DNA from: Okamejei kenojei
Taxonomy: Eukaryota
DNA length: 64,000 nucleotides
Assembly: GCA_035221665.1 (NCBI GenBank)
Contig: CM069152.1
Coordinates: forward strand, 18,724,001-18,788,000
Reading direction: 5' to 3'
Under the pieces are notes generated by a model. That model made no database searches, was not told the DNA's origin, and was given only the letters and a program-made list of their open reading frames with translations. Shown here in pieces: positions 14,901-47,399 of this stretch. The stretch's first letter is position 1; every line of letters begins with the position of its first letter. Position numbers and translations under genes: made by a program.

Positions 14901-15094
14901 TGTAGGAAGGAACTACAGATGCTGGTTTACACCGAAGATAGGCTCAAAATGCTGGAGTAACTCAGCGGGCCAGGCAGCATCTCTGGAGAGAAGGAATGGG
15001 TGACGTTTGGGGTCGAGTCTGAAGAAGGGTCTTGACCAGAACCGTCACTGATGCCTTCTCTCCAGAGATGCTGCCTGTCCAGCATTTTGTGACT
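14901..15094. mobile_element. Penelope-derived inverted dimer
   Basis: Two inverted arms of the repeat; TSD ACCTTGTAGGTG at 14891-14902 and 15095-15106. Confidence 0.85.
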
Positions 15095-15299
15095 ACCTTG
15101 TAGGTGCTAGATCTGCCCCCCCCCCCACGCCCCCCCCCCTCCACGCCCCCCCCCACGCCCCCCCACGCCCCCCCAATCCCCAAACACACACATGCAATTG
15201 CTCCTGTCTTGCTCATATTCATAGCAGAGTTTCCCTGATGCATCTATCCATTCAGCCTGTTCTGCTCACCTCAGATTTATTTATTCCTGCCATTAGTCT

Positions 15300-16140
15300 A
15301 TTTTATCATCCTTGATTAATCTCTTGCCACTTCCATCCAGGACTTTGATGACACTCTCGGCCACTTTCTAATTTCCTTGCACCAATCTGGCTATATCCTC
15401 CATGCCTCTCACCAAGATCAGTTGCGGCCCCTTCACTTATTCCTTGAATATAGCCCAAAACGTTCCCCTTCCACTACTATCCTTCTCGATGAACTCACTC
15501 GCACACTGAACACAACAATTCCCTTGGATCCATTTACTACTTCCAAGCAGAATGATGCTATGGGAACACATATGGATTCAGCAGTGCTTGTTGAACCTTT
15601 TCCATTTCAATCACACTCAGGTCTTCTCACTTACCTTTTTTTGTTGGAACATGTACAGAGACCATTTCTTGCTGACTCCTTGAATAAGAAAACTCCACTA
15701 CTTTTACTGCCAATTTCCACCCTGAACTTACCTTTCCACCATCCATCTATGACACTTTCCGTTTTCTTTCTCTGCCTCTGCGAAGATAGGATCACAGAAC
15801 TTTCACTAAAAGCTCACTGACTTCCACAGCTAACTTAGTTACATTTTTGCCCACTGAGCTTTTTCTAAAGACTGCATTTCATCGGCTCCTCTTTCTGTTC
15901 TGACAACGCCAACATCACACCAGTATTTCTGATGTGTCGTCCTTCTTCCGCCAAGTGTTTGCCTTCAACTGTACTTGGTATTTGATATTCCAATTGTTGC
16001 TTTAAGGTTCTCACACCTTGCCTGAACACCTCACCACCCTTCATGTTCAACCAATCTTCCCCTGCAATTTTGGGACTTCCACCAATACACTGCATTCTTC
16101 GCTCTCACCTTTCAGGAAGGTCAGCATGCTTCCTAATGCT
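15300..16140 (+). mobile_element. Old Penelope-like RT/linker remnant
   Basis: Degenerate motifs (AMGTHM resembling GVAMGTRM; a KPTDSH-like segment; IFP...LS.F linker) with many frameshifts. Confidence 0.55.
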
Positions 16141-16669
16141 CTGGATCGCTCTTCCATTCCTCCTGTTCCATCCTCTTTCTTGCTCCACCTTCCTCACTAT
16201 GCTACTGCACAACACCTCCTAAGCCACAACCCCTACCACCAAGAAGGACAAAGGCAACAGTTATGTGTGACACCACCGCAGATTCCTCTCCCTGTTGCAA
16301 GCCATCCAAATTTAGAAATATTTTGCTGTTCGTTCATTGTTGCTGAGTCTAAATGCTGAAATTCCCTCCCCAACAGTATACTTCTCCAAACAGAGCACCT
16401 TCACTGGGAGGATTGGCTTGCAAGCAATGTAAGGGTCCTAACAAATGCATAAGAAAGATAAACAGAATCCCCTTATGTAACGCTTGGATTTGGAATACCT
16501 GCTCCTTTAACAACCTCTTCTCACACTCCCACTGCTCAGTGTGACCCCCATCATTTGGCAATTGGGTGGACATTTTGGATAAGATTTCCACCCAGTCCAT
16601 AAGCATGACTATCACGCTCCCACTCTCAGCCTCTGTTCTTGGCACAAGAGCACAAACACACAAACGAGT

Positions 16670-17060
16670 AGACCACCAGGCCCCTCAAATCTACCCCACC
16701 ATTTAATATACGTAATCCTGGCTGTTCTATGCTGGCCACAACTTATCTCTATGCCAGCTACCCATAACCTTCAATTCCTTGATCTTTCAAGTATTTACCT
16801 GTCAATGTAGATATTGATCCAACCTCCACCACTCTCTGAGGCAGAGAATTCCAGCGTTTCAGTACCGTCTGAGAGTAGTGATTTCTAGGTATGCAGACAC
16901 ACCTCAATTATCAAGTGATTCTTTGTAGCGATATCCCCTGATCGTGACTCTCCCACTCATGAAAACGTCCCAGCATCTTCCCTGTCCAGTCACCTTAAGA
17001 TCTTATATGTTTGAATAAGGTCACCCCTCATTCCTCTTAACTCCAAGGAACACAAACCCT
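16670..17060 (-). mobile_element. CR1 LINE 3' fragment
   Basis: Degenerate inverse of the CR1 3' end at 35833-36300. Confidence 0.65.
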
Positions 17061-17107
17061 CTCACCGCAGGAATTATTCTGATGAATTTCCTTTGAATTG
17101 TTTCCTG

Positions 17108-17410
17108 GGTGTGACAGTGATGTAGCAGATAGAGCTGCTGCCTCATGCTGCCTTAGACCAGCGGTTGATCCCAACCTCAGGTGCTGTCTGTATGGAGTTT
17201 GCTACTATTCCCAGTGATCACATGGGTTTTCTTCAGGTGCTCTGGTTTCCTCCAACATTCCAGCTTTGTAGATTAATTAAACTCTGTAAATTGCCTCTGG
17301 TGTGTATTAAATGGATGTAAAAGTGGGATAACATAGAACTAGGGTGAACGGGTGATTGATGGATTTTGTGTGCTGAAGTTGTATTCATGCTGTATCTTTC
17401 AATCAAACAA
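17108..17410 (+). mobile_element. tRNA-derived V-SINE (HE1-like)
   Basis: tRNA-like head, V-domain (GTCTGTATGGAGTTTG...GGTGCTCTGGTTTCCTCC), tail ...GCTGTATCT(TTCAATC). Confidence 0.75.
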
Positions 17411-18819
17411 TCAACAATCTCTTTTACGCCCTATCCAAAGTCTCCACATCCTAGCTGTAATGTGGAAGCAAGAACGGCAAACAATACATAAAAAATGGCA
17501 TAACCCAAGTTTTATATAGATGCAATGATTCCCAACGTTTATACTCAATGCCTAGACCGATGAAAGAAAGAAGCCATATGCCTCCCAGCTCAGTAATTCT
17601 GCCCTCCCCTCTCCGCTCCTTCCTCTTCTAACCCATGGACACGTAATCATTCCCAGCTCCCATATTAGATCATCTTGAATGTGAAATGTGAATTTTCTTT
17701 CACTCTCCACAGAAGCTGCCTGATCTGCTGATTATTTCCAGCATTTTAAAAACAAAACAAATTATATAGAGTTGTAAAATGCATTATATATGGGATCTGT
17801 AATATGGTTTCACCCATGAACTGAATTTAATTGGTCCAGTGCTCAGGTAGTTTGTGTCATAGAGGATGCAACACAGAACTGGGCTCGTCAGCCCATAAAG
17901 TCCACACTGACCCCAATTTACACGCAACCCCTGTTTTCATTAATCCTATATTAATCCCTTTTTTTAAACCAGAATTTAAACACCACTATCACAGGTTATG
18001 TGCTTTCCCAATCTTCAACTTGTTTTGTATAATTTGGCTTCTGATTCATTCTGAAATTAGTAATATTACTTTAAATGATTTTCCAGTCAATAGTAAGATT
18101 ATTGAGATTAGATAGTGTGCTGGTATGATGTAGCGGTGTGAGTGATTCGGATTAGGTGTAATGATTACCAGTAGGGGTTATCGTTAGTGATTAGAGAGGA
18201 CTGGATTTACAGGAAAGTGTTATGTTTATTGTTAATTGTTTGAATTAGTTTAAGAGATTTAGTGCTCAGATCTTAGTGGCTGAGGTAAGATATTAGAACA
18301 TAAGTACCGCTATCACTAGTTATCTATTTTTCATATGTTTTTAACCTTGCACTGACCAGTGGTACCATAGAAACTGCAGCTGGCTTCATAAGGAATCCTG
18401 TTCACAGCCATAGACAGATTTCAGCATAGAGCGCAGTCTCTTGATGGAAATTGTACCTGAATATGGGGTTGCATTTATGAACCAAGTTTGTGTTAAATTG
18501 GAAGTAGCCCCTCGATTTGTTTCATTAAATCGGTTACTGAGTTGCCATTTATGGACAAGTGGATTTAGATAACGGATACACCATGATCTATTTGAATGGT
18601 TTACCCCCATTTGCTATGTTCCAAGTTCTAATTCATTTTCGTCCCTTCAAAATGGCACGAGAAATGTAATTAACATTTACAGACAAAAACTTACATTAAA
18701 AAAATCTTCAATTTTGGATTCTCCCCCTCGGTAGTCACTGATTGCAAAATACTTTAAGAGCAGCAGCCCCCCCCCCCCCCCCCCCCCCCAAAAACCCTAG
18801 AACCTAGATTGGGCAACAT

Positions 18820-19220
18820 AGTGTAAACTGTGACACCAATTGTAAACATTTCATACATTCAGTGCAACAGTATGGAGGTTCCTTTATTCACTGCCACAAT
18901 GTAAACAGTCCCAATATTGAGCATTTGATGTAAACAGCCCAGAGATAGTGTCAAAATTGTAAATACTGTAGTCCCTGCATTTACTTCACAGTTTGAGCCC
19001 CAGTGTAAACTGTATACCAATTGGGAACCATTTTGTAAACAGCTCTGGATTGGCTTCTCAGTGCAAATAATCCCCAGATTTTATTTTACAATGTAAAGAG
19101 TCCCCAGATAAGGTGCCACAGTGTAAATATTTCCCACACTTGTTTCTCCAGTGTAAATCCCTAGATTGCTTGTTGCAGTGTAAAGGCTCTCCATATTGGG
19201 TGTGGCATGGTAAATATTCA
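18820..19220 (+). repeat. Degenerate ~30-bp minisatellite with TGTAAAYA cores
   Basis: About 13 (C)AGTGTAAA-like units spaced ~29-30 bp (e.g. 19061, 19091, 19121, 19151). Confidence 0.7.
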
Positions 19221-19344
19221 CAAGTTATAGGAGTGGAACTAGGCCATTCGGACCAGCGAGTCTCTCCAGCGTTCAATTACGAAAAGCAGAGCTGGCTGGG
19301 TGTTTTGCAGCGTGACTTGGTCTTCCCTTTCCATACTTCGAGTT

Positions 19345-19446
19345 TTCCTCTCCCCTGACTTTCAGTCTGAAGAAGGGTCTTAACCTGAAACATCACCAGT
19401 TATTTTTCTCCGTAGATGCTGCCTGACCTGCTGAATTACTCCACCA
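19345..19446 (+). mobile_element. Penelope-like terminal repeat, degenerate hammerhead
   Basis: CAGTCTGAAGAAGGGTCTTAACCTGAAACATCACC...GATGCTGCCTGACCTGCTG. Confidence 0.75.
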
Positions 19447-19754
19447 TCTTCCATGTTCTTTCCAAAGTTGGTGCATCAGGGGTGTGCTGGAATGCTTGCG
19501 AGGATGAGTACAGCTCCAGCAACACTCAACTAGCTCTAGATGATCCAGTTCTAAATAGCTGCCGACCATCAGCTCAGTTACCACCCAAAACCGTCACTCA
19601 TTCCACCATTCCTCACCTACAGTGCATCACAACTCCAGGGTGCACTGGAATAATTACCAAAGCTTCTTCAACATGCCTCCCAGATACCTGGCCACCGGCT
19701 GTAGGAACAGTGGTGGCAAGGACCGGAATAACATCCTTGCAGGTACCTCTCCAT

Positions 19755-19942
19755 ATAGAAACATAGATACATAGAAAACAGAAAAAAAATAGGTGCAGGA
19801 GTAGACCATTCGGCCCTTCGAGCCAACACTGCCATTGAACATAATAATGGCTGATCATCTAAAATCAGTTCCCTGTTCCTGCTTTTTCCCCATATCCCTT
19901 GATTCCCTTAGCCATAAGAGCTAAATCTAACTCTCTCTTGAA
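19755..19942 (-). mobile_element. CR1 (HER1-like) 3' end
   Basis: (ATAGAAAC)n tail plus AGGTGCAGGAGTAG.CCATTCGGCCCTTCGAGCC; inverse of 36130-36300. Confidence 0.85.
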
Positions 19943-21737
19943 AAATATCACACACCTTCCTTACTTGTCTGTTATACCGCTGATCCCTCAGTGTCATTTG
20001 ATCTAATGCTGAACCCTGTACCTCATGGTACTATGGAACTGTCTATACACATGGACCACACTTGTTTAAGAAAGCAGCTCAGCACCATTTTTACAAACTC
20101 GTGGAAGAAACAGACCCTATAGCCCACCTTGTCCACTCCAGCAGTTGCACCCATTAATCCCACCTGCATTGGGCCCAGAGCTTTCCACAGTAATAATAAT
20201 CCAATGAGAATGGTGAATAAATGCCCAGATATCACCTGCAACCAGTTGGTGCATCATACTGCACATCAGATGGAGTGTTGGCTCCCCATAGTATATTTGC
20301 ATTAGATGATTAGTCTATGACACAGTCTGTTGTGATTAGGTGGTTTGATAGTAGAGTAATTGGTATGGCCTGTTATTTATTGTAAATTTGGAATAGGTTG
20401 CTCAGTAATGACAGTGAGATTTGGTATATTGAGATTAGACAGTACACGTGGAACATTTGGGGCCAGGCTTTGCTGATAGTGACCATTACTTGTGCCCAGA
20501 GGTTTGATAGGTTTGGTGTGCAGGATTTGGAAGGTTGAGGTTAGAAGATTGAGATTTATTGATGATAAATTGGATTTAAGCAACGGATACATCAGACTGG
20601 AGCAATGGCACCGTTCCTAAAATCCGTGGTGGGTTTATCCTGGGCTTTAAATCAGATCAGCCTTCGGAAAGACATCTTTCCCAAATGAATCTTATCGAAA
20701 GTCATAAATTCCTCCGAGGAATCTGAACAGTTCCATGTTCCTGTTGGAGAGAGGACCTCGTCTTCGTTGCAGATCACATTTTGGAAAGGAGAAATGGGCT
20801 GAGATATGTTGTTGGAAGCTTGCTGCAGACCGGGTGAAATCAGACAACAATCTCCGCGACCCAAGGGACGTTTCCGAGCAACTTTGATGGAGGTTCCTGG
20901 TAAGTTTATAGCGGGGGGCGCGGGCAGAATTTCAACATTAAAAGAGGCGGATAGAGAGCGGTCGGCTTGGTGCTAATTGAAATACATTCTTATTTAAAAG
21001 CGCTTTACTCCACAGTTCCCAGGCGGTTCAAACGGCACATATCTGGACTGGACAGGCTCAGATTAACAAAGGTTATGCAGGGGAGGCACAAGTGCATTCG
21101 TTCCATTTAAGAACCTACTTCGGTTACACGGAAACTATGGTCTGGTGATTCCAATCTCTCTGTCCATTTCGGGAACGCGGATAATCCCAACACTCGAGAT
21201 GGAAATGGGGATCGGGGAGGGTGGGGGAAGAGATAGGGACACTTGTACAGCGGGTAGCCGCGCACACCAGTCTAGCACTGACGCTAATTATATGTGGGAT
21301 GGGGGGGGGGGTGGGGGGGGGGGGGGGGGGGGAGCAGGGAGAGCAAAGGACGCGATCGTTTGTTTCAATTAAACACAACAACTGAATGGATAATCAGTTG
21401 AAGTGCCGAGGCCGGAGCATTATCAAAGAATAGAGCTCAAGGATATTTAATGAAAGCTCGAGCTAACAAGATTACTACAGAATGCTCTGGTCACCGGATC
21501 AAAAGCAATGTTGGGGCCAGGTAGCAATTCACAGCAACTTTCCGTTTCCATCTAATCTCAAGCAGTCTCGCAGGTTTAGTTTTGTCATTTGTCCGGTTTA
21601 TTTTTCCCCATCTCACCTCTGGTTCTCTCTTCACATTGTAAATATATTTTCCCCTAATTAACATTCATGTTCTCTGTCCGGTTCTCGCCCTCTTTCCGTC
21701 ATTCTTCGCGACCTTTCACCAATCCTAGTCGCCTCCT

Positions 21738-21818
21738 AGAAACATAGAAACATAGAAATTAGGTGCAGGAGCAGGCCATTCGGCCCTTCGAGCCTGCACC
21801 GCCATTCAATATGATCAT
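21738..21818 (-). mobile_element. CR1 extreme 3' end
   Basis: TAGAAACATAGAAACATAGAAA tail plus GGCCATTCGGCCCTTCGAGCCTGCACCGCCATTCAATATGATCATG. Confidence 0.85.
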
Positions 21819-22502
21819 GTCCTCTCCCGTGATGTATCTCCCACTTTCGCCCCCTTACCATGAATACTCCGCTCTTGGCATCCCTTATATATCTTCGTCT
21901 TCTCCCTTTCCCATACCTCACCTTCTGTCTTTCTCAACAACATCCCCTCCCGCTTTCCTTCCTCACCCCATCTCCCTCTCCTTTTCCGCTCTTCTTCATC
22001 CTCTCCATCCCTCTCCCTTCTCTGTCGACGCCGCCCTCCCTCAAAGCCCACTCCCTCTCAAACTGTCCCTCCCCTTCTCCCACCAGCCAACTTGCACCCA
22101 AGGTAGTTCCATGTCATTGAGAGGACGGATCACAAAGTTTGACCTTCGCGAAAGAACCTCCTCAATGTACGAGCAATCCGCTGGCCAGGATGAAGAGTTA
22201 AAGTTAATGAAGAAACCGCCGTGGCCCGTCCCTTTGATCTGATTGTTACGGGGGTTCAATAGGACCATGTGTTACTTGATTAATTCCCATTCTTAAAGAA
22301 AAAACAATCTAGACAGAGGCCATATGGCGATGAAATCTCATTTAACAAGCGAGCCCGCTTCAGACGTTGCGCTGGGCTGTCTGCCGGCTGGATGCGTTTT
22401 GTTCTCTCTGCCGAGACAGAGAGACTGGCTCCGGGAGCCCTGACCCTCCGTCCCGCACTGCTGGAGTTAGCGAGGTGCGGAGACGTCCTGCCCGGGAGAT
22501 CT

Positions 22503-22736
22503 TAAGATCATAAGTGATCGGAGCAGATTTTGGCCATTCGGCCCAACAAGTCTACTCCGCATTCAATCTATCCCCCCCCCCCCCCCCCCCAAAAAAAACC
22601 CCTATTCTCCTGCCTGTTCCCCATAACCTCTGACACCTGCACTAATCAAGAATTCTATCTGTCTCTGCCTTAGAAATGTCCACGGACTGGCGACCTCCAC
22701 AGCCTTCTGTGGCAAATAATTCCACAGATTCACCAC
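22503..22736 (-). mobile_element. CR1 3' fragment
   Basis: GGCCATTCGGCCCA...CCTCCACAGCCTTCTGTGGCAAA..ATTCCACAGATTCACCAC. Confidence 0.8.
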
Positions 22737-23861
22737 CGGAGATGGGTGACCAGTCCCGGGTTAAGGGGACTCTCTCTCTCTCTCTCTCCGGTGCACACAC
22801 TTCCAGTCTCCTCACAAGTTTCCTTTTACCCCCGCTCCCAACGCTGCCTGCGTTTTTTGTTTTTTTTTGCTGTCAGTTTTATTTCATTTTTCTTGCAACC
22901 ACCACAATCGCTCTGACCAAAAGGTTTACACTGGCCCATCTTTTACCCGCTTCCTCTCCCTCTCCCCGAAGTTCAACATTATTGGACACGTCCGTCCGAC
23001 TGTCTTGTCTCGGTTTAGTTCCTGCTCCGACATTGCTTACATTTCCACCACCCCCCGTATGACATTGTAGTAACCATTTCTTGTACCGTCTGTGTCATGG
23101 GTGGTACAACACAGAAACGGGCCCTTCGCTACCTTTATGCCCATCTACGCTCATTCCATGTGTCTGCCTTCTGCCCATGCATGGTTCTGTCTAGCCTATT
23201 TACCTGTACCTCTTAGTTGCTGTGCATACAGCAATAAACTCGACACAACTTGACCGTCTAATAAGTGCCTGTCGAAATTCCGCTTAAATGTAATGGTTGT
23301 GTCTGACTTCACTTTTTTTTTTGCCCTGATACCTTGTATTTGCGCACTTTTTTTCTTTTCACTGTTCTGTAAATTTGTGTCATTTATGTATAATATATTA
23401 TGTGTTCGCTGAGTCTGTTCCTGTGATTCTGCTGAAAGCAAGATTTTCTTTGTACCTGAATCTCAGCTGCACTTGAGAACATGGCCACACACTTCACTTG
23501 ATTCCTCTGTCGGGGAGTTCCAGATACCATACTCTACTTTTGTCTGAGGGACTGTACTGTGCATCCAGTTGCCATTCTCTGTGTAAAAAAACTTTAATCT
23601 CAAATTCCTCTAGAACTCCTTCTGCTCCTTAAACCAATGTTTTCCTTTTAATTTCTCTACTGAGGATAAAAGATTCCACCCTATCTTGGCCTCTTATAAC
23701 TTTACCTCACTTTTCGTCTCCAGGGAAAATAAATGCACCCCTACCAACCTCTCCCCATAACTGACGTCCTTCAATCAAAACAATGCCCGGTTGCATCTCC
23801 TCGGTACTCTCCAGTGTAACCACATCTTTCTGTGCGGCAACCCAGAACAGTGCACAACACA

Positions 23862-24060
23862 TGTAGGAAGGAACTGCAGGTGCTGGTTTACACCGAGGAG
23901 AGACACAACATGCTGGAGTAACTCAGTGGGATAGGAATGAGAAGGAATAGGTGAGTTTCGTTTCTTCAGACGAACGGTCTTGACCTGAAATGTCACCCAT
24001 TCCTTCTTTCCAGAGATGCTGCCTGTCCCACTGAGTTACTCCAGCATTTTGTGTCTATCT
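23862..24060. mobile_element. Penelope-derived inverted dimer
   Basis: Inverted arms; probable TSD GTGCACAACAC (23850-23860) / GTGCTCAACAC (24064-24074). Confidence 0.85.
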
Positions 24061-24689
24061 GCTGTGCTCAACACTCAGTTTTCAATATAATGTTAGTAAC
24101 ATGTTTGCAATCTGCTTCACCTCCAGTCCAGTTTCTGTACCTCTCAATGGTCACTTTCCATGCTTGTATCCCTGTTTAATTTTTACACCTCCTTGATAGT
24201 TTATTTGTTTTTTTGGTTCAGTTGATGTCTCTCATTCTCTTTCTCAAGCGTGCCCTCTCCAAGCTTCCACAGGCTGCTTCCTGACTTGGAATGAACCCTG
24301 TTCACCTGCTGGTCTCTGCTCATGCCCAGTAACACTATGACCATGTAACTAACCTGGTTTGCTCATTCCTGCAGTTTAATTCAGGAGTGAACTGAATGTG
24401 TGGTCAGGGCAGTGTGGGTCTCTGATAATGATGATGGTTGCCTTTTTGAGGCAGCGACTCCTGTAGATCCTTTTTGATAAATCCGTTACATTCACATCCA
24501 ATTCACATTTTTTTCTCTGCATAGCTTCTGGTTTAATTCTACACTCCCTCTTTTCCTATAAATTAGTTAGCTTTGCCGCTCACATTTTATATTCAATATA
24601 TCACTGATTTCAATCTTGGCTTAGTTGCTGCCTCTCAGGTTTTGATCTTTCTGCTAGGTTGTTCTCCTTGTCCCCTATTACACGAAACC

Positions 24690-25075
24690 CCAGAATCCGT
24701 TGCCCCTGTGCTCACTGATCCACACTGGCTCCTGGTCCACTAACATTTCCATTTTAACATTTTCACCCTGCTTTCAAATCCTTCCTTGACCTCAATCATT
24801 TTTATCTTTGTCAACTCGCTGAGTCCTGTTAGATCCCTGCGTTGCTTCGAGTCTGGTTTTTCACACTTCTGATTTTCATCATTTCACTTCTGTTGTGCAT
24901 TCCTTCCACTATTTACTCCTCAGGTTTTGGTCTCATCCTTTTAGTCCTCACCACGTCTCTGAAGATCCCCCTTTGGTGACAAAGTTTATGTTTATCTCAT
25001 CCTATGATTACTTTGTGGTTCAGGTCAACAGCACATTTCACGACATTAAAGCCACAATATTAAATAAACGTTGCA
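24690..25075 (+). mobile_element. L2 LINE 3' remnant
   Basis: Degenerate PVL.D.HWL...FK.F.L.FKSL..L motif typical of the L2 ORF2 C-terminus, followed by an L2-like tail. Confidence 0.55.
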
Positions 25076-25563
25076 GTTTTCATTTATCTATTTCGGTTTT
25101 TGTGTATCACTCAGTTTATTTTTCAAGTACACACCACCGTTTCATTTTTGTAGCTCTCCTGGAGTTCAGATTTCCAAAAGTTGTTTGTTTTGTAATCACA
25201 CTGTTTAGATACTGTATGTCTCTCTCAATGTTGTTTTCATTTTACAGTAGAATTTTCTCTCTTGGGTCAGATTTTGAATTTCTTACACCTGTGTGTCTGC
25301 TTCACCTTGATAATATAGCTTCTGTTTCACCTTCAGTTCATATTTTGTTTCACTTCAATCATTTTTATGTATTTTACAGTTTGGACATTTTACCTCAGTT
25401 TGTTTTCTTCACCTGCCTTTCAGAACTCATTATTACGAGCCCTTTCAAGCCATTTTGGAAGAATAGAAACATAGAATACCATTCAAATTTTATGAATGGT
25501 ACAGCAAAAAATGCTTTGTCTTTATAATAATTAATGATATAAATTAAAAATTCTCACTATGAT

Positions 25564-36800: not shown

Positions 36801-36892
36801 CCTGAAGAAGGGTCTCGACCCGAAACGTCACCCATTCCTTCTCACCAGAGATGCTGCCTGTCCTGCTGAGTTACTCCAGCATTTTGTGTCTA
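36801..36892 (+). mobile_element. Penelope terminal repeat inserted in the Rex1 3' region
   Basis: Intact hammerhead core plus CCAGAGATGCTGCCTGTCC.GCTGAGTTACTCCAGCATTTTGTGTCTA. Confidence 0.85.
36802..36833 (+). ncRNA. Minimal type-I hammerhead ribozyme core (Penelope-type)
   Basis: CUGAAGA-A-[GGGU CUCG ACCC]-GAAA-CGUC/ACCC. Helix III is replaced by the ACGU palindrome; helix I pairing is weak. Confidence 0.65.
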
Positions 36893-36917
36893 CCTCCCAT
36901 CTACCTCATTGGAGACC

Positions 36918-37203
36918 TTTAGTTTAGAGATACAGCACAGAACCAGACCCTTCTATCCACTGAGTCTATACATCCATAATTAGCACTATCCTGCACACTA
37001 GGGACAATTTACAATTTATACAAAAGCCAATTACAAACCTGTCTGTCTTTGGAGTGTCGGGGGAATCTGGAGCACCCGGGGAAATCCTACGCAGTCACGG
37101 GGAGAATGTACAACCTCCATACAGACAGCACCCATAGTCAAGATTGAACCCGGGTCTCAGCCATTGTAAGGCACCAGGTCTCCCAACTACCCCACTGCGC
37201 CAC
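36918..37203 (-). mobile_element. V-SINE, near full length
   Basis: TTTAGTTTAGAGATACAGC tail, inverse V-domain, inverse B-box GATTGAACCCGGG and head CCACTGCGCCAC. Confidence 0.85.
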
Positions 37204-37806
37204 CCTCTGTCACCTTGAATTATCTTTAATCGGCATTTATTGGACATTATCTTGCAATACATATGATACCCTTTATCTTTTAACTGTACACTGTGGGACG
37301 GTTTGATTGTAATGATGTCTGGTCTTTTCTTTCACTGGGTAGCACAAGGCAAAAGCTTTTCATTGTACCTCTGTATATGTGACGATAATAAACGAAACTA
37401 AATTAAACTGATTTCTCCTCCATTGAGGATAATTGCCTCTGAACCTCGGTCTTTTAATTTGTGCTCCAAACAGGTAAGGCATCATAGCAGGACAAATATT
37501 CACATTAAGTCACGGTATCGATTTTAGTTCCTCTCTAATAATTGAAAGCACGAGAACTGCTGCTGCTCCAGGGAGGATTCAAAGCATTTTTTAAAAAAGG
37601 GCTTACTTTGGTAAAATCAGACGCATTTTAACTTCATGAGGCACGGGTGCTCTCAGGGAGTCACCAGTGCAATGATCCGGGGTCATAATATTGACCGCCA
37701 GCATATTAGTGAGCCTGTTGCATCGAGCCAGGGAAGGCATTCGACCTGGAAATCTGGGTCAGCCACCAGAGAGAGGGAAAACGTGGAACAACTCAGGTGC
37801 TGAGAT

Positions 37807-38019
37807 GCGTAGGAAGGAACTGCAGATACCGGTTTAAACCAAAGATAGACACAAAAAGCTGGAGTAACTTAACGAGACAGGCAGCATCCCTGGAGAGAAG
37901 GAATGGGTGATGTTTTGTGTCAAGACCCTTCTTCAGAATTGTCCCAAAACATCACCCATCTTCTCTCCAGAGATGCTGCCAGTCCCGCTGAGTTACTCCA
38001 GTGTTTTTGTGTCTATCTT
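37807..38019. mobile_element. Penelope-derived inverted dimer
   Basis: Inverted arms; TSD GGTGCTGAGA at 37796-37805 and 38021-38030. Confidence 0.85.
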
Positions 38020-38147
38020 GGGTGCTGAGAAGGTGCAAATTAAAACAATGGTTCAGCAATGACAGTTCCATTCTGCAATCATCCTGTGTTTCATTCATTC
38101 TGCTCTCTTTGTCTTTTAACCAAGCGCATGCTTGTTTACTTTAGATA

Positions 38148-38305
38148 AGTTCAGAGATACAGCCTGAAAACAGGCCCTTCGGCCCACTGAGTCCACGTCG
38201 TCCATCGACCACCCATACACTAGTTCCGTGTTATCCCTCTTTCCCATCCTGCACATGAAGGGGCAATTTACAGAAGCCAATTAACCTACAAGCCCGCACG
38301 TCTTT
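38148..38305 (-). mobile_element. V-SINE 3' part
   Basis: AGAGATACAGCCTGAAAACAGGCCCTTCGGCCCAC...GCCAATTAACCTACAA. Confidence 0.8.
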
Positions 38306-39314
38306 GTGTTTGAACCATTCAGTTTATTTTATCGTCACGTGCACCGAGATACTGTGAAAAGCTGTTGTTCTCTTTTAATTCCCTTAAATGGTGGTGTTTT
38401 TACTTGTTCCCCTCCTGCACAGAAAGAGTGTCTTCAGGCACTGTCACAGGGGGCAGTGGCACCTCCGTGAACTGAGGCCTGGACAGTGGCAGCCCATTGA
38501 CTGTGTGGGAGCACTGCCTACTGTCCTTCTCTGCTGCTCCTTACATCAGGATCCAAGTTCCTGGCTGACTATCATTTCCATTCCCCATGTCAAACACAGG
38601 CACCAAGCTCGATGGTGATGCTTATTCGCAATCACACCCACATTACCTGTCTCAGAACAGAACTCACAGCGCAGAGAAATCTCCCGGCCCAGCGGACACA
38701 CTCAGTTACCATTACCTCTGGCAAACAGATGATAGTACTTACATGTGTGTGTCTGCGAGCCCAGCAATTGCATCACTCAGAAGGTGGTGAGTCTCTGGAA
38801 TTTTCTGCCCCCAAGGATTATTAGATATATTTAATGTGGAAATTGATAAATATTTAATAGATTGAGGAATTGAGAATTATGGAGAACGGGCACAGAAGAA
38901 GAGTTGAAACTAGCATAGATTAGCCATGATAATATAGAATGGTGGGACAGGCATGGGGGGTCAAATGGCCTACTCTTCCCATTTTCCTGTGCGTGTGTGT
39001 GCCTATGTGTGTGGCCTGTGGGCGTGTTTATTAGTGTGTGTGTGTGCGCATGCCTGTATGTTTGTGTGCGTGTGTTAATGAGGCATAGATACAGGCCCTT
39101 CAACCCACCATGCCTCCGTGATGGTGTCAACTACAGGATCTTCACCTTCCTCCTGCAGCCGTTCAGAGACATCACTGACTCTGGCATCAGAGATGCAACA
39201 TAACATTTGAAAGCATGATTCTCAGCCACAGAAATACCTGTCGGCTTGTCTTGTACAAGACACTGGTGAGGCCACATTTGGAATATTGTGTTCAGTTTTG
39301 GTTGGCCTGTTGTA

Positions 39315-39645
39315 CAACACTCAATCCTCCAACATATCCGTCAACTCCAACGGGATCCCACCACTGGTCACATCTTCCCATCTCCACCCCTTTCTGTTTT
39401 CAGCAGAGACAGTTCCCTCCGCAACTCCCTGGTTCGCTCATACCTTCTCACCCAAACCATCCCTCCCCCATGAACTTCCCCCTTCAACTGCAGGAGATGC
39501 AACATCTGTCCTTATACCTCCTCCTTCGACTCCATCCAGGGACTCTGACAGTCCTTTCGTGTGAGGCAGAGGTTCATTTGCACCTCCTCCAACCACAACT
39601 TCTTGTACCTTTGATCTCGGCTACATATCGGCGAAACCAAGCGAA
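39315..39645 (+). mobile_element. Penelope-like ORF fragment (linker plus GIY-YIG start), Neptune-like
   Basis: ILQHIRQLQRDPTTGHIFPSPPLSVFSRDSSLRNSLVRS, Cys-rich linker NCRRCNICPYTSS, VRQRFICTSSN and HIGETKR across frames. Confidence 0.75.
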
Positions 39646-39726
39646 AAAAAAGTTTTCAGATTGCAAATGATGCAGATACTGCTGACTAGGAAGTGAGTTG
39701 TGAAAACACTGAATGTTCAAAGTGAA

Positions 39727-39820
39727 GACGAACACAGAAAGCTGGATTAACTCAGCGGGACAGGCAGCATCTCTGGAGAGAAGGAATGGGTGACGTTTCT
39801 GGTCGAGGCCCTTCTTCAGA
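39727..39820 (-). mobile_element. Penelope terminal repeat, single arm
   Basis: Matches the window-wide repeat. Confidence 0.8.
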
Positions 39821-40381
39821 CATGCTCCCCTCCCCTGGAAACAAAGGTGCTGTTTGTTACCTTACCGGATAACCTTGTGGAACTTGCGTCAGTCAATATC
39901 AGATAACAAGCGATGAATACCTTTGTAGCTAGTATTTCTTTTGTTGTTGAATGGAGATTTTAACCAATTCTTTTGAGGGATTAACACCGCTATGAAAGGA
40001 ATGTGTAAAATATTTTGAAATCACCACCTACATTCTGAGTGCATGTTGTGTTGAATATGACTAGCTAAAGATTGATACATGGTCTGCTTAGACAGTATTT
40101 ACAATACCCTATTTACCAGTAATACTGTGTACTCAACAATATGTTCACTAATCGGCTGTGAACCTTGAAAATACTTTTCCCAGATCACATTGTACAGGTT
40201 AAAATTGATAATTTTTTGATAATGATTTTGTTAACAGGAGCAAAGATATATCCTGGATGATAGACATTTGTAATCCATGTGATGAAACTGATTGTTGATA
40301 AGAATGGTCATTCCATCGTCTTCTGGCAAACTCTTGCAGTGGCACAGTCACTTCTTGTGAAACAAGCAATATCTTCTCTCG

Positions 40382-40465
40382 GCTGAACAAGGGTCTTGAC
40401 CCCAAACGTCACCCATTCCTTCTCTCCAGTGATGCTGCCTGTCCCGCATTTTGCGTCTATCTTCA
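40382..40465 (+). mobile_element. Penelope terminal repeat, single arm
   Basis: CTGAACAAGGGTCTTGACCCCAAACGTCACCC (mutated core). Confidence 0.8.
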
Positions 40466-40942
40466 AACAGACGCAAAATCGTCAGCTTACCTGACTGCAC
40501 ATCTGCTCAGAGGAGAGAACAATTATTCTTCTATACACCTCAAAGCAATTCCTTGAGAAAAGTATTTGACGTCTAACTTTACTGAGGTTGCAAAGCAAAC
40601 AGGATTTGACAAGCAAGTCTAGTTAGCAACTTGCTGCATCGATCCCATAAAAATATGCCACGCACTTTGCTTTGGGCAGCCAGATGTTGACATGAAACAA
40701 CAATGAAAATACATTTAGGTCAGAATTCCATGCTGACTAACTTGACGTAGCTGTCACTTGACAAATTCAACTCAATGGGCTAATATATAGCACAGAATAT
40801 TCTCAATTCCCTTTTAACAACCACCATAATTATTCAATATGCAGCTAGCTATTTTGCCAACAACAGGCTAAAATTAATGCAAAATAAGAGATTAAGGTGG
40901 AAGTAACATCATTTCTTAAATGCCTTGCAACCTTACTGATCA

Positions 40943-41137
40943 TAGACGCAAAGTGCTGGAGTAACTCAGCGGGACAGGCAGCTTCTCTGGAGAGAAGGAA
41001 TGGGTGACGTTTCGGGTCGAGACCCTTCTCGAATCGTCACCTATTCAATCTCTCCATAGTTACTGCCTGCCGTGCTGAGTTACTCCAGGATTTTGTGTCT
41101 ATCTTCGGCTTAAACCAGCATCTGCAGTTCCTTCCTC
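40943..41137. mobile_element. Penelope-derived inverted dimer
   Basis: Inverted arms; TSD CAACCTTACTGATCA (40928-40942) / CAATCTTGCTGATCA (41138-41152). Confidence 0.85.
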
Positions 41138-41289
41138 CAATCTTGCTGATCAGATCACTTTAAACTAGCTGATCAGTTTTGTCACCATTACATATATTGT
41201 ATACACACATAAACATATCACACTCCAGTTCTGTACCAAAGATGTTGCCTACGGGTTAGATGGCAAACCGCTGCCATGTATTACGTTTC

Positions 41290-41420
41290 AGGCACCCTTA
41301 AAGACCCTATTGAAGATGAGACGGAGTTTCCTGGCCAATGTTACCATTTAAAAAAAAAAAAATATGTCTGATTGCAGGTTGTGGAGCAAGTATGTGCAAA
41401 TTAGCTGCTGCATTTCTGGC
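41290..41420 (+). mobile_element. Ancient DeuSINE (SacSINE1-like) core remnant
   Basis: CTATTGAAGATGAG..GGAGTT.CCTGGCCAATGTT...TGTGCAAATTAGCTGCTGCATTTC resembles the Deu-domain as recalled. Confidence 0.45.
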
Positions 41421-41799
41421 CTGGAAATGCAATTGCACAGTGCATCTGCTTAACGCGCCATTTGATTAAAATGCAGCATATAATTGATGGCTACATGTGA
41501 TCATGATCTTTGCAGTGTTCTTAAGTAGCTTACATATGCACTACATACATGGACAACATACTTACAGTTCTCAGGGGTGAACTCAAACCGCATGCAGTGC
41601 CCGCTTTAAACCTCTCTTGTGCAATTGGTTTGCATGTACAGAATTAGCACTCGGTGTGAGAAAACGGGTCTAAACAGCAGGGATAAGTCCTCTTCCTGCA
41701 TTATTTAAAGCGATCAAGATTTCTTGTCTGTTTATTTCAGCTGAACTCGTTGGAATCAGACACAAACAAGTTTGGAGCGGCCCAAAATTACGCCCCCCC

Positions 41800-42007
41800 A
41801 CCTTCACCTGTATCCACCAGGCTTTATCTTACCCCTGATCTCTTCCAGCTTTCTTATCTCCCCCCCCCACCCCCACAATCAGTCTGAAGAAGACTCCCAA
41901 CCTGAACCACCATCCACCCATGTTCTCCAGAGATGTTGCCTGACCTGCTGAGCTACTTCAACCATTTGTGTCTTTTTTTTTTGTAAACCAACATCTGCAG
42001 TTCCTTG
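41800..42007 (+). mobile_element. Penelope-like 3' UTR and terminal repeat, older subfamily
   Basis: CAATCAGTCTGAAGAAG...CTCCAGAGATGTTGCCTGACCTGCTGAG...CATCTGCAGTTCC. Confidence 0.75.
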
Positions 42008-42659
42008 TCTCTTCTTTCATGTGGTTGGAACAAGAAATTATACAGGTTGATTATATTTAATAATAAGGTGAAATGCAGGCAGGCTGAAGACTTGTTTCAA
42101 TCCCTCCATGACATACAGATTCCATGCAGGGGATGCAATGAATGTAGCTCGTTGACTGAAGCTCACCATTTAAGCTGTTCAGTGAGACTTTGATCTCCAT
42201 TCAATAAATAGATACAAATTATCTATTTTTTTTAAATAAGATTCGATACAGTTCCACTGCAGCTACAAGCCTGGAAGGTTGATGGCCGGTTCTCTGAGCA
42301 AAGTTGCAGAGCTGCTTCCTCACCGGTGCCTCTGTGCCAAGGATGTTGTTGTGTGGCTCACAGAGCAACTTGAACCTGAAGGAGAAGGGACAAGAACACT
42401 TCAGTGCAGAAAGCTGAAAGTGCATGGAGAGATGGGCTCTGGCCAGTATCTCCCGCCCAGTGCATCTCCAACATAGAAGGATGGCCTGAGACGGGTTCAA
42501 CCTCTCGCTGTCCATCTGTCCATCCTGTCTGAATCACTGACTCCAGGCTCGTATGATGCTTCATATCATCTTATCTGGCAGCCTCCTCATCCTCCTGCAT
42601 CAATGATTGAGAGTCTGGAACATGTCTAACCATTCTGAGTATCACATAGTTGTACAATT

Positions 42660-44020
42660 AGTCACAATGGCATAGAAATGGCCATTTGGCGCATCATATT
42701 TATGCCAGCTCCTTATTTGGTCCCGTTCTCCACTCTACACCCATAGTCTCCACTTCTTGTAGATAGTGAGTTCCAGGTCACTATCATTCACCCTACAAGG
42801 AGGCTCTGTACATATCTATCTGTATCTCTTGCTCCGTCTTTCTACCATAAGTAATGAGATCGCCTTTTTCTTAGTGTACTTTATATAAACCTGCAAAAAT
42901 CTTGACAACCTCAATCAAATGTCCCCTCAACCACCTTTTCTCTTCTGGCTAAAATCCTTGGAATCCTTCTGGTAAATCTCATCTGCACTCTTTCAAGGAA
43001 CTCTCTCATCCTTCCCAAAGTTTGGTGCCCAGTCTGCAGGCAACATCCTTGCTCTCGCCTAATCTCAGTGTTATCAGTTTCAGCATAACTTTGCCACATT
43101 GTACTAAATATTTATATTTAAGTAGCCTTTACTAACTACTCACTCATTTGTTCTGCCACATTTGAAGATCAGCACACATAAACACGAGATCTCTATGTGG
43201 TATAATCGTTAAAATGTGATGTTAAATCTACACTGTCTCACCCCTTCTCTGTTCCATTAAAATGCATCACCTCACTCTTGTCTGTGTTGAACTTCATCTG
43301 CCCCGTATCTGCCCATTCAGCCAGCCTGCCCACGTCCTGGTGCCAGTCGCACTACTTGTCACAGCCCCAGGTTTGACATCACAGGCACATTTTTAAATTA
43401 TATTCTGTGTTCCAAGGTCCACTCAATTATATGCATGAAAAATACATTGATTCCCATGCCAATCCATTTGGAATACCATTATCCATCAACCCCCTGGTCT
43501 CAAAAACAACCATTCACTACAACTTACTATTTTCTATTCTAAAACCATTTATAATAAATATCCAAGTTAACACTGACTCTTTTATTCCATGAGCTTTTTT
43601 TTTGTTAACCAGCTTTCCATTTGGTATTTTGTCAAACACTTCCTTAAAATCCAACATCCTTACTGTAACTTTCTCTGCTATTTCATTTTAAAAAAACGTG
43701 GTTAGTCATATACTATCTGCCTATTGCAAATCCAGTCTGGTTCTCCTTACTTAACTCATACTCCATGATAATTTTCTCCCTGATTATTATTTGTTAAACC
43801 CTGTCCATCTCTAAAGTTAAACGAAAGTGTTCATGTTTACTAGGAATATCCACATACCACTAGAATGAACCATTGTTTTCCTCATTTGCCACTTTCCAAT
43901 ACTCAAACTATTGTAAAATTGTGGCAAAGCCCTTTTGTGATCTCCATGCCCACTTCCCCTCCCAACCTGGGATAGAAGCCATCTGGCTCAGGCAAGGTGT
44001 ATTTTCTAAGAATAACCAAC
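42660..44020 (-). mobile_element. Old CR1 LINE remnant
   Basis: Minus-strand LERVQMRFTRRIP and PEPDGFYPRL motifs, highly degenerate. Confidence 0.6.
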
Positions 44021-44337
44021 CTTTCCAACACATCTTGCCTATTAATTCTCACCTCATCCAACACCCACCCCCCTTCCAATATATATTTTGTCAACATCCT
44101 CTTCCTTAGAAAATTGTTATGCAAAGTGCTCGTTAATATTCTAGTGTTGGCCTGCATCTCAAGCTGAGCATCTTCAGCATCCCCTGCATCCTTGAGATAG
44201 TCTCAGTAATTGTGCCAGCATCTTCCATGTCTTTGCTCAGACTATACCGAGTCTTTATGCTATGTGCTTGCTTCCTCGTGTATTCCCTGTAGTTATCTTC
44301 AGTGTTCTGTGGGGGAGTGGGGGAAAGGATGGGGAGG

Positions 44338-44660
44338 TCTGGATGTTTCCACTAGTAGGACTAGAGTTCAAGACTGGAGGTCATTGCCTCAGAATTAAAG
44401 GACGTTCCTTTAGGAAGGAGATGAGGACAAATGTCTTTAGTTAGAGAATGGTGAATCTGTGGAATTATTTGCCGCAGAAGGCTTTGGTGGCCGTCAATGA
44501 ATATTTTTAAGGCAGTGATAGATAGATTCTTGATTAGTATGGGGAGATGGCAGAAGAATGGGGTTAGCAGGGAGGGATATATCAGCAATGGTGAATTGGA
44601 TTTGATGGGTCAAATGGTCTAATTCTGCTCCTATCACCTATGACCTTATGATCTTGTGAC
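44338..44660 (+). mobile_element. CR1 3' end
   Basis: GHCLRIKGRSFRKEMR...VNLWN.LPQ motif and a (TTATGAC)n-like tail. Confidence 0.85.
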
Positions 44661-44966
44661 CTCTCATGTGTGCTGGCAAAATCCAAAAATGACAAAAATA
44701 CTTCCTACACAATTTATACCCGATGCATCTCCTCATCCATAAGAAATCTACTCGCACATACTGTGACTCCTGCAAAATTGTTCCTCCATGACCACATTTA
44801 GAGGCGCCAGCTTATGGAGCCATCTCCTACTTGCCATTCTTCCTTTTCTCCAGAGCTGCTGCCTGGCCCAACTGAGTTACTCCAGCATTTTGTCCCTCTC
44901 CTTCTTACGATTATTGGATACTTCAGGCAGCTTTCACATGGGTGCCAACCAGTAACATTCCACATT

Positions 44967-45249
44967 GTGTAGGAAGGAACTCCAGATGCTGGTTTAAACG
45001 GAAGATAGACGCAAAATGTTGGAGTAACTCAGCGGGACAGACAGCATCTGTGGCGAGAAGGAATGGGTGATGTTTCAGGTCAAGACCCTTCTTCAGACTG
45101 AAGCAGGGTCCTGACCCAAAACGTCACCCATTCAACATAGAGAAATGCAAGATAATATATTGTGGTGGAAACAAAAAGGTCTTCAGACTGAAGAAGGGTC
45201 TCCAGAGATGCTGACTGTCCCGCTGAGTTACTCCAGCATTTTGTGTCTA
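44967..45249. mobile_element. Penelope-derived inverted unit with duplicated hammerhead segment
   Basis: Inverted arms with three CTGAAG cores; TSD TAACATTCCACATT at 44953-44966 and 45248-45261. Confidence 0.85.
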
Positions 45250-45384
45250 ACATTCCACATTATTTTACAGAGAGCTCACAAGTCTTACACAGATGGGACA
45301 AGAAGTTATTCAGGTGGTTGCCTCACCTCAGAAACTCCCGTATGGTTCATATGTCCGACTTGGCAACTTCTTCACTGCCATGCA

Positions 45385-46850
45385 TAGAATAACATACGTA
45401 GGATTTATGGCACAGATGTAGACCATTTGCCACTACAAGGCCATGCTACGCTTGAGTCCCCTCTCATCCGATCCTTTCTTGCTGTGTCCACTCCATTAAA
45501 CCTTTCAAAGGTCTTTGTTAGACCGCTCTTCAATCTTCTTTTCTTCCAGCCTGTTCATCATTGGCTTCTGTGCACATTTTCACATTTCTGGGACCTCCCT
45601 TGTAAATCCCTTGTGTTCTCTCTACACTGCCACTGTATTATTTTGGTGACCAAAACTGTAGAGTTCCCTAAATTGAGATTAATCAAGTTCCCATTCACAT
45701 TTGCCATATATTTCCTATTTTTCAATTCTATATCTCTTGAAATAAATCCTGGTTTGATCTAATCATGGACTTATACAACTACTAGTGATTGGTGTTTGGG
45801 TGCTCCGAGATTTCTTTCATCCCTTATCCTGGCTAGATCTTTATAAGTGACCTATTTTTTTCCACCAGAATATATTACTTTGCTCTATTATATTATATTT
45901 CTCTATGTTGAATTTCATTAGTCAATTATTACCCAATTCTGCAATTTTATTAATAACCTCCTGTCATTTGTTAAAGTCCACCACAGTGGAAGTATTCCCT
46001 TGCACCTCCCTACCAACTGCCACAGACAATGTGTTAGTGTCTGATAAGTTAGACATTTTTGATTCCAGACTGTATCATTAACAAGATTGGAGATAGACAC
46101 AAAATGCTGGATTAACTCAGAGGGACAGGCAGCATCTCTGGAGAGAAGGAATGGGTGACGTTTTGGGTCGAGACCCAGAGATGCTGCCTGACCCATTGAG
46201 TTACTCCAGATTTTTGTGTCTATTTTCGGTTTAAACCTGCATCTGCAGTTCCTTCCTACACATTAATAAGATTGGTTCTGGCACTAATGGAATACCAATG
46301 CCCATCTCCTAACACTGTGCTTTATCCCCACTCTCTAATACCTGTGCTGAAGCCAGTTTAGAACACCTTCCACTGCTTGTCCCCTGACTCCATATCCCTT
46401 GACTTTATTCATGAATCTATTGTGGGGCACCTTATCAAAAGCCTTTTGGAAATCCAGATAAATTATATCTACCACATTAGTATTGTCTATTTTCTTTGTC
46501 ACATTCTCAAGTAATCAACGTTGGTCAAACAAGGTTTTGCTTTTTGAAATCCAAGCTGACAATTCCTTTCATTTCAAGATGTTATATTCTCTCCTTTAGC
46601 AGGGATTCTATTATTTCTCCTACTACTGTTAATCTGGTCTATAATCCCTTGGACATGTACTATCACCCTGCTTGAGTTTCAGTATTACATTAGCTTTCTG
46701 CCTTTCTGCAAGACAGGACACCCTTATTCTTAACAGGTTATTATACATGGGCAATAATTTCCCTTTCTCTTCCTTAGATTTAAAAAATAATAATGCCTGG
46801 ATGTAATCCACCAGACCATGGGGTTTCATTCTCTTTGAGTTTGATTTGTT
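45385..46850 (-). mobile_element. Old CR1 LINE remnant
   Basis: Minus-strand YLDFQKAFDKVPH (inverse GTGGGGCACCTTATCAAAAGCCTTTTGGAAATCCAGATA, ~46422-46460) and G....P.DYRP motifs. Confidence 0.7.
46091..46261. mobile_element. Penelope-derived inverted dimer inside CR1
   Basis: TSD CATTAACAAGATTGG (46076-46090) / CATTAATAAGATTGG (46261-46275). Confidence 0.85.
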
Positions 46851-47399
46851 TATTTAATATGCCCCATTTTTCTGTTTGAAATGCACATCTCATTGGTCAT
46901 GTACACCGGTTCTATCTCCCCTGGTAATTATCAAAGCAAATGACAATAATGATTTAGTATTTCTGCTGTAAACCTATTGTTCCTCTTTCTATCACTTGAT
47001 GGTCCTATTCCCAACCCAAGCTTGCTTTCTTTTCCGATGTGTCTAAAATAATGATCTTTTTTCACTGTTCATTTCTAATTTAATTTCATAATTTATCCTT
47101 GTTTTTATTTACTTCTATGTTAATACCTTCTTGGTTGTTTAAAATTTCTTCTGCTGTCATATTTTTGATTGCAACCTCTTTTCTTCAGTCAGACCCAAAT
47201 GACTTTATTTATCTGCAGTGTGTTTGGTTTGTATCTTGTGTGTTTAGTTTGTTCTTATGACAATATATATATTTCATGCGCTCTGTTCATTACCATTCTA
47301 AGAGTTTCTCATTGATGTTCCACAATGCCCTTTGTCAATTTTGCTACCCATTTCATCTTCCCAACATCTAGTCTCAAGCTCCTCAAAATTAACTTTTCT

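Follow-up and report, generated by a model that had tools for sequence, protein, structure and literature searches.

Head-to-head copies of a Penelope-like terminal module in Okamejei kenojei pair one long with one short arm and are probably built at insertion

Penelope-like elements (PLEs) of rotifers and flies are known to insert with head-to-head inverted pseudo-long terminal repeats (pLTRs), a tail on one side, flanking duplications of 8–10 nucleotides (nt) and palindromes at the junction (PMC3846280; PMC2377424; PMC8557442; PMC8969392), and the origin of their tandem and inverted structures and of the one-sided tails has been named as an open question (PMC8557442). The closest described cases are Pen2a, Pen2 and Pen3a of Adineta vaga (PMC3846280) and form C of Penelope in Drosophila virilis (PMC2377424), where the inverted terminal repeat has a one-sided tail of 30–40 nt, an 8–10-nt duplication encloses the whole insert, and palindromes or overlaps mark the inverted junction. 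Here we describe ten inverted units that share these features in a 64,000-nt stretch of Okamejei kenojei (contig CM069152.1 of assembly GCA_035221665.1, positions 18,724,001 to 18,788,000; hereafter, the window). While in A. vaga and D. virilis the inverted repeat flanks an open reading frame (ORF) or captured DNA and is present in low copy, the units in the window have no ORF, their arms measure ~100–135 nt, and they make up 10 of the 29 loci of their family. We consider, with a probability of about 0.9, that each of these palindromes is a single, dead-on-arrival insertion by a Neptune-type PLE, built at the time of insertion.

Other systems resemble these units in part. The PLE PAc (Poseidon, Anolis carolinensis) carries a hammerhead ~120 nt upstream of an AC-rich end, has two end classes that lie a tail apart, and uses a template uncut at the hammerhead; it belongs, however, to the Poseidon clade and its ORF begins at helix II, whereas the relatives of the window elements have a Neptune-type linker zinc finger, and the available text of that report does not treat inverted dimers or the pairing of ends (PMC11167929). 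The minimal hammerhead of D. virilis shares with ours an extra base between A9 and helix II, a G10.1-C11.1 pair, a palindromic 15.2-16.2, a 2-bp helix I and an AG at the 5′ edge of that helix, where the intron of D. virilis Penelope ends, but differs from the variant in the window, whose helix II has 5 bp with a 2-nt loop and whose helix III is loop-less; in Schistosoma, pairs of minimal hammerheads lie on opposite strands, 100–700 bp apart (PMC4209133). Animal non-LTR retrozymes are likewise ORF-less, derived from PLE termini, equipped with a type I hammerhead and 170–400 nt long, but they are arranged head-to-tail, with canonical or dimer-competent ribozymes and circular RNA, whereas the units described here are head-to-head, decaying, and predicted to sequester their ribozyme (PMC7229834; bioRxiv 10.64898/2026.07.22.740005). 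A literature search, which did not extend to subscription papers, the 2005 and 2006 PLE reviews, Repbase or Dfam, turned up nothing published about palindromic PLE stubs without ORF from cartilaginous fishes, nor about PLE twin priming. In the twin priming of L1, both strands of a staggered cut prime complementary DNA (cDNA), producing an inversion between duplications with a microhomology join; there, adjacent and non-overlapping parts of the RNA are copied from a variable internal site, while the arms in the window copy the same region and have a fixed second start. The inverted arm, the one-sided tail and the duplication are thus known, and what is added here is the pairing of one long with one short arm; with this pairing and the shared 5′ boundary, the question of mechanism becomes one that can be addressed by counting.

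By self-comparison and profile search we recovered 39 arms of one repeat module of ~134 nt, which correspond to 29 loci (10 inverted dimers and 19 monomers) and cover 4,283 bp, or 6.7% of the window. The module is numbered from its 5′ T, with hammerhead C3 at position 6 and the cut after position 33, and onto this scale we projected 35 arms out of 39, leaving out four weak ones at 14434, 17703, 60040 and 60617. The ten inverted units, 170–280 bp in size, comprise the 11 top-ranked inverted repeats among 55 pairs spaced by at most 400 bp, and all of them, at least nine plus the one at 58752, are present where a first-pass annotation of the sequence had placed them. All pairs have an antisense arm on the left and a sense arm on the right, so that the module 5′ ends are central and the 3′ ends point outward. 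Flanking duplications were scored as matches minus two times the mismatches, in one direct-repeat search fixed for all, with monomer ends set by hand. The units are:

14888–15106, unit 14901: duplication 14888–14902 / 15092–15106 with 14/15 matches (score 12); long arm left, minus strand, module 18–135; short arm right, module 3–100.
23850–24074, unit 23862: 11-nt duplication with one mismatch (score 8); long arm left, carrying two internal deletions, and short arm right; TCAG-N-CTGA palindrome at the centre.
25841–26075, unit 25855: duplication with 14/16 matches and a perfect 9-nt core (score 10); short arm left, long arm right; centre inside hammerhead helix II.
29597–29788, unit 29604: variant subfamily, with five derived letters in both arms; 6-nt duplication (score 6); symmetric centre; short arm ending at module 57.
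30586–30833, unit 30600: perfect 8-nt duplication (score 8); short arm left; long arm right, its hammerhead core being the sole one in a dimer arm to be strictly intact; forms a single hairpin when folded.
37796–38030, unit 37807: perfect 10-nt duplication (score 10); long arm left (module 5–136), short arm right (23–104).
40928–41152, unit 40943: duplication with 13/15 matches (score 9); short arm left, to module 10; long arm right, from ~14–25.
44953–45261, unit 44967: composite, with a perfect 14-nt duplication (score 14) and two centre junctions; long arm left, sense piece 0–41, 46-nt filler, second palindromic centre, short arm to 96.
46076–46275, unit 46091: duplication with 14/15 matches (score 12); short arm left (module 14–99), long arm right (49–136).
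58752–58980, unit 58752: no duplication (score 2); two long arms of differing variant types.

Eight of the 10 units scored at least 8. So did 4 out of 500 pairs of random positions and a single monomer out of 12, but not one of the 90 cross-paired flanks. Because the cross-paired control retains the element ends, microhomology to the element does not explain the duplications, which in these eight units span 8–16 nt, including such microhomology, and are perfect in three. The proposal that eight units carry flanking duplications passed a check against chance, and the view that each hairpin reflects one insertion is supported, a single duplication enclosing both arms in these eight. The score of 6 of unit 29604, also reached by 10 of the 90 and 49 of the 500 controls, is not significant alone; removing the whole unit together with one copy of its 6-nt repeat, however, gives a gap-free junction match to a paralogous repeat at 43145–42968 (63% over 180 nt, E 1e-12), and this is the only one of ten modelled empty sites with a spanning paralogue in the window. 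Unit 58752 is possibly the product of two separate events. The interior of unit 44967 (45134–45198) contains, besides a 46-nt filler, another palindromic centre, which suggests template jumps or repair synthesis.

The 3′ ends of the arms fall into two classes, 125–136 (long) and mostly 89–110 (short), separated by a cut-off of 120 that was chosen after the data had been seen, within the empty gap 110–125; in dimers, long arms end at module 134–136 and short arms at 96–107. One long arm is paired with one short arm in 9 of 10 dimers and in all 8 with a duplication score of at least 8 (p = 0.031 by permutation of the 20 ends; p = 0.007 for 9/10 and 0.0025 for 8/8 by independent draws at the monomer rate), and in each of these 8 the second arm stops 30–40 nt short, in agreement with the first-pass annotation, in which, for most units, one arm ended ~35 nt short of the other. 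This pairing is the new element here, drawn from ten units of one window. Monomers end long in five cases and short in eight (n = 13), so that the short end acts like a separate start site. At the other side, 17 of 35 arms begin at module 0–8 (the old arm at 51962, mis-started at 61, begins near 5 with softer scoring), and in three of eight units (14901, 40943 and 46091) 5′ sequence that is absent from the long arm is present in the short one, which makes neither arm a simple copy of the other. Four centres (23862, 29604, 30600 and 44967) lie on the near-palindrome TCAG-N-CTGA at module 1–9, those of 25855 and 40943 in or near helix II, and the others are joined by 2–3 nt of microhomology or a short spacer. 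Together with the variable duplications and with monomers that show the same two end classes, the differing centres argue for palindromes that are made at insertion and not copied from a master. Likewise, the fixed duplication length and uniform copies of a MITE (miniature inverted-repeat transposable element, a non-autonomous DNA transposon) are not seen, with duplications of 6–16 nt and differing centres.

The copies are without selection and decay neutrally. Most arms diverge by 3–15% from the majority sequence, internal deletions of 10–25 nt are frequent, CpG positions are less conserved (71% vs 91%), and the arms of one unit differ by 16%, compared with 18.6% between units; derived letters common to both arms of a unit (2.1% vs 0.8%) are mostly due to unit 29604 and to CpG decay. 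Inverted partners were sought for 7 of the 39 arms, the weak or older family members, and none stood above background. Older, diverged modules related to the terminal one, with no inverted partner detected, lie at 14393–14515, 17683–17747, 51961–52077, 58167–58272, 60040–60110 and 60617–60685.

Judged by its sequence, the module is of Penelope-like origin and follows what appears to be a Neptune-type GIY-YIG C-terminus. Two copies still carry the end of the ORF:

47400–47796, plus strand: 5′-truncated PLE with 17 endonuclease codons and a stop (47401–47454), followed by a pyrimidine-rich spacer, the hammerhead (from ~47677) and the tail.
27884–28248, minus strand: 5′-truncated PLE with 8 codons and a stop near 28246–28217, spacer and short end; intact hammerhead core; 11-nt duplication with one mismatch.

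The attachment of the repeat to a GIY-YIG ORF end thus holds at both sites, although only 17 and 8 codons remain of that end, and the copy at 27884 aligns as nucleotides to the one at 47400 across 375 columns. The stretch 47386–47481 matches the C-termini of proteins P0001 (E 2e-4) and P0002 (E 8e-4; tblastn), and the peptide at 47400 was matched by a profile at E 0.0017 in a set of 3,337 six-frame segments; a broad one, made from 76 ends, places it first, but at E 0.058. P0001 has a Pfam GIY-YIG domain above cut-off and a reverse transcriptase (RT) match, and P0005 reads through its own spacer and ends, after the endonuclease, in a hammerhead-frame peptide, which links module and endonuclease independently in another genome. 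On these grounds the Penelope-like origin proposed earlier is upheld. The longer PLE fragment at 56772–57062 retrieved seven proteins, the five named ones being from sharks and rays. A CX2-5CxxC linker between RT and endonuclease, the mark of the Neptune and Nematis clades (PMC8557442), is present in P0001, P0002, P0003, P0008, 34 of 38 long relatives and the window fragment 39312–39647, that is, in relatives and an unattached fragment and not in an ORF joined to the module; as Nematis has the motif too, we file the family as putatively Neptune-type, by motif. It also displays the traits of endonuclease-positive PLEs, namely a one-sided tail of 30–40 nt, an inverted 5′ copy, a duplication of variable length and a terminal repeat with a hammerhead. 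The module can be read through in one frame without a stop, but this frame matched no protein (one search gave three candidates, none of them at E 0.01; another gave a best E of 0.99 among 167 proteins), so that an overlap with the N-terminal part of the ORF, as in PAc, stays hypothetical.

Apart from these two ORF ends, PLE ORFs occur in the window only as unattached fragments. Decayed ones lie on the plus strand at 39312–39647 (linker zinc finger and partial endonuclease), 15410–16500 and 55510–56436, and at 56832–57377 there is an inverted insertion with ORF sequence in it, where an RT-thumb fragment (minus strand) stands head-to-head with a long arm (plus strand) that belongs to an older, related terminal module; no duplication is visible there by eye. 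Between the ORF end and the hammerhead of the copy at 47400 (47450–47676), a GT at the stop and a pyrimidine tract with AG before the hammerhead delimit a candidate intron-like segment that spans the spacer, comparable to the intron known from D. virilis Penelope. A decayed endonuclease end seen by eye under unit 14901 was not significant (E 0.28–0.44, equalled by 2 of 300 and 67 of 300 shuffles).

The minimal hammerhead proposed in the first-pass annotation is present in the majority sequence, with its core, a 2-bp helix I, a 5-bp helix II preceded by an extra, bulged A, and a palindromic helix III that lacks a loop; in individual copies, however, the core is strictly intact in only 5 of 18 spanning arms, just one of which is among the 10 dimer arms that span it. 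At position 7, 18 of 21 arms have A and 2 have U, and predicted pairing holds in 79.6% of cells, compared with 9–45% after sliding, with no covariation. Selection on the hammerhead in the copies was considered and rejected, its core positions being conserved at 94.0%, against 90.7% elsewhere outside CpG, with no compensatory pairs. Among 26 Rfam matches at E up to 5 there was no hammerhead, the best being microRNA models below threshold. Helix I has an AG at its 5′ edge, downstream of a pyrimidine tract, and we take the letters at this edge to resemble an initiator consensus, as a candidate. In folding predictions a whole unit forms a single hairpin (-134 kcal/mol, vs -58 for shuffles, z -17), while isolated hammerhead regions fold no better than shuffles in five of five cases (z -0.7 to 1.2).

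The same annotation had regarded the repeats as retrozyme-like, and this does not stand. The dimeric hammerhead fold requires two sense copies, and animal retrozymes are head-to-tail tandems processed at the hammerhead (PMC7229834; bioRxiv 10.64898/2026.07.22.740005); with head-to-head copies, each transcript consists of one sense ribozyme and its antisense and cannot supply two sense copies. Among 18 rows of tandem repeats in the window there is no array with a period above 23 nt, and none of the 35 projected arms starts at module 32–36, within 2 nt of the cut site. In the dimers the hammerhead would thus be a passenger, which is decaying, predicted to be sequestered in the hairpin, and unable to form a dimeric ribozyme. 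The units are insertion by-products of a known architecture and not retrozymes.

As to how they would be built, we tentatively favour, at somewhat less than even odds, two-primer target-primed reverse transcription. The GIY-YIG endonuclease would make a staggered cut with 3′ overhangs of ~8–15 nt, as the length of the duplications suggests, and both 3′ ends would serve as primers for cDNA, with uncleaved element RNA as the template, one using the start at the tail end and the other that ~35 nt upstream, in keeping with the pairing of arm ends. Both cDNAs would halt close to a boundary in the template immediately 5′ of the hammerhead core, or sooner, where the arms are observed to begin; candidate causes are the RNA start, a splice acceptor or a polymerase stop. 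Their 3′ ends would then anneal through palindromic template sequence or microhomology and be filled in to give the head-to-head pair, and a monomer would result where one cDNA got lost or was not made at all. PAc, so far the sole PLE to be reconstituted, cuts and extends both strands in vitro and has two start sites, between which the tail lies; it prefers RNA that is uncleaved, a dimer is predicted for it, and its start region lies 111–118 nt past the start of helix II (PMC11167929); the long end in the window lies 121–123 nt past it. Given this biochemistry, it is simplest to suppose that either end of the break primes a cDNA of its own, each from a different start site. In favour of this count the outer junctions of the units, both of which are element 3′ ends, the long-plus-short pairing, the short ends of 8 of 13 monomers, and the short arms of 14901, 40943 and 46091 with their additional 5′ sequence.

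Several points weigh against it. At all four TCAG-N-CTGA centres the central base is the one supplied by the long-arm cDNA; with two primers the chance of this is 1 in 16, unless the long cDNA as a rule extends further. Deletions in the arms are frequent, and the three cases in which the short arm extends further may be later deletions. In PAc, the start site did not differ between strands, and pairing per event is not reported in the available text (PMC11167929). The sample is ten units of one window, with two misfits (58752, with two long arms, and 29604, with its end at 57), and no orthologous empty site was found among the 15 joints listed of 21,661 in public contigs.

A less probable but serious competitor is that a cDNA started at the tail snaps back at the palindromic 5′ boundary, copies itself and stops ~35 nt short of its start, at the point where joining to the second target end takes place; the short arm would then be a copy of the long one, and asymmetric centres the result of later deletions. 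Such a fold-back would make the long-plus-short pairing automatic and would place centres on template palindromes, as seen at module 1–9 and 14–25, with the long-arm base at all four symmetric centres; arm deletions are common in any case, and self-priming, on an antisense template, is the published reading of palindromic junctions (PMC3846280). Yet it requires an extra deletion in three of eight units, leaves without reason a halt where 8 of 13 monomers end, and should also yield short-plus-shorter dimers from cDNAs started at the short end, of which there are none among ten; in unit 14901 the junction base is the sense T and not the A that fold-back of a long arm would leave, although this is one base only. 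Ten old copies cannot separate it from the two-primer route.

We hold it improbable that the units descend from a pre-formed palindromic master, whether retrozyme-, SINE- (short interspersed nuclear element) or MITE-like, copied by the PLE enzyme from a hairpin or circular RNA or moved by a DNA transposase. Their similar size of 170–280 bp, the duplications around whole units, the very high copy number and the four of ten centres on one palindrome would suit such a master; against it, the centre junctions vary among units, the duplications of 6–16 nt are unlike those of a transposase, there are neither tandem copies nor arms that begin at the cut site, arms differ within a unit nearly as they do between units (16% vs 18.6%) with no compensatory change in the helices, and the monomers, which account for 19 of the 29 loci, show the same two end classes. 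Least probable of all, and very unlikely in our view, are two independent monomer insertions, the second into the first, with flanking repeats by chance. PAc can cut its own sequence (PMC11167929), and the discordant arms of unit 58752, which lack a duplication, would fit, but a single duplication surrounds both arms in 8 of 10 units (0/90 and 4/500 in controls), both arms of unit 29604 come from the same rarer subfamily, and its reconstructed empty site is colinear with a paralogue.

Beyond the window's own dimers, the same ends recur in its monomers and in public contigs. Eight monomers are described here:

36802–36895, plus strand: nearest to the majority sequence; begins at hammerhead C3; short end.
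1062–1196, minus strand: long end; hammerhead core intact.
19342–19450, plus strand: includes 20 nt of upstream spacer; short end.
39715–39821, minus strand: short end; hammerhead core intact.
40381–40464, plus strand: short end, then an 11-nt inverted copy of its own 3′ end.
41860–42006, plus strand: different subfamily; long end.
59711–59804, plus strand: short end; hammerhead position 7 is U.
62224–62321, minus strand: long end; 5′ truncation at module 39.

The monomer at 40381 thereby forms a small tail-to-tail arrangement (40381–40480), the opposite of the usual orientation. When public contigs of four runs were aligned to positions 36700–47900 of the window, the strongest loose end in all four lay just before 36802 (1,575, 1,223, 1,570 and 269 contigs), with loose letters that end in the module's first five bases and are heterogeneous further out, and a loose end at the tail was found in 821 contigs of run X2. 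In that run, 646,286 of 17.9 million records align to this region, other repeats included, and summed depth, which is not a copy number, is 1.0–1.5 million in module bins, 8–20 in unique bins and 37,094 in the bin of the ORF-end copy, whose divergence lowers its depth. We infer of the order of 10^5 or more module copies, most of them without ORF; the very high copy number and mostly ORF-less state proposed earlier are thus supported, while the statement that the family dominates the genome is overstated on the evidence here, at 6.7% of the window. The module family occurs at similar depth in organisms C and H, and contigs of organisms A, C and H reach 20–25 nt from unique flank into several dimers, which falls below our 31-nt bridging rule and is a hint that these dimers are shared. 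Module pattern scans found nothing in viral contigs, metagenome contigs or prokaryote genomes; nine 18-mer matches in viral contigs were attributed to chance (best E 0.007, at one of nine loci). Very high depth was also found for other high-copy repeats at 36923–37158, 38153–38301 and 44341–44654, presumably SINEs.

Elsewhere in the window, homeobox gene exons lie on the plus strand at 4262–4630 and 6777–7823, with the Pfam Homeodomain split across both; we take this gene to resemble Uncx. Positions 1200–14300 contain no module locus where ~6 would be expected (a post hoc count), which suggests selection against insertion near the gene. A fragment of a Tc1/mariner-type DDE transposase is found at 33743–34504 (plus strand), and a 42-nt near-perfect, loop-less palindrome at 63726–63767 is unrelated to the module family.

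Such minimal products reduce the insertion event to two arms and a duplication, and genome-wide counts of end pairing and centre polarity could separate two primers from fold-back. Units of this kind are prone to being mis-filed as MITEs, microRNA hairpins or retrozymes and, if transcribed, would provide abundant double-stranded RNA substrates. It is also conceivable, though we rate it as unlikely, that the PLE enzyme is an asymmetric dimer that seats both ends of a staggered break on a single RNA, at two start sites that are fixed. If that were true, two starts in the module nearest the RNA 5′ boundary would give a complete run-off palindrome and not a random truncation, whereas one start in a downstream copy would give the textbook insertion of inverted pLTR and ORF, so that one rule would explain tails, inverted repeats and short copies across PLEs; cartilaginous-fish genomes would then hold ~10^5 or more independent records of the process, each a potential double-stranded RNA hairpin when transcribed.

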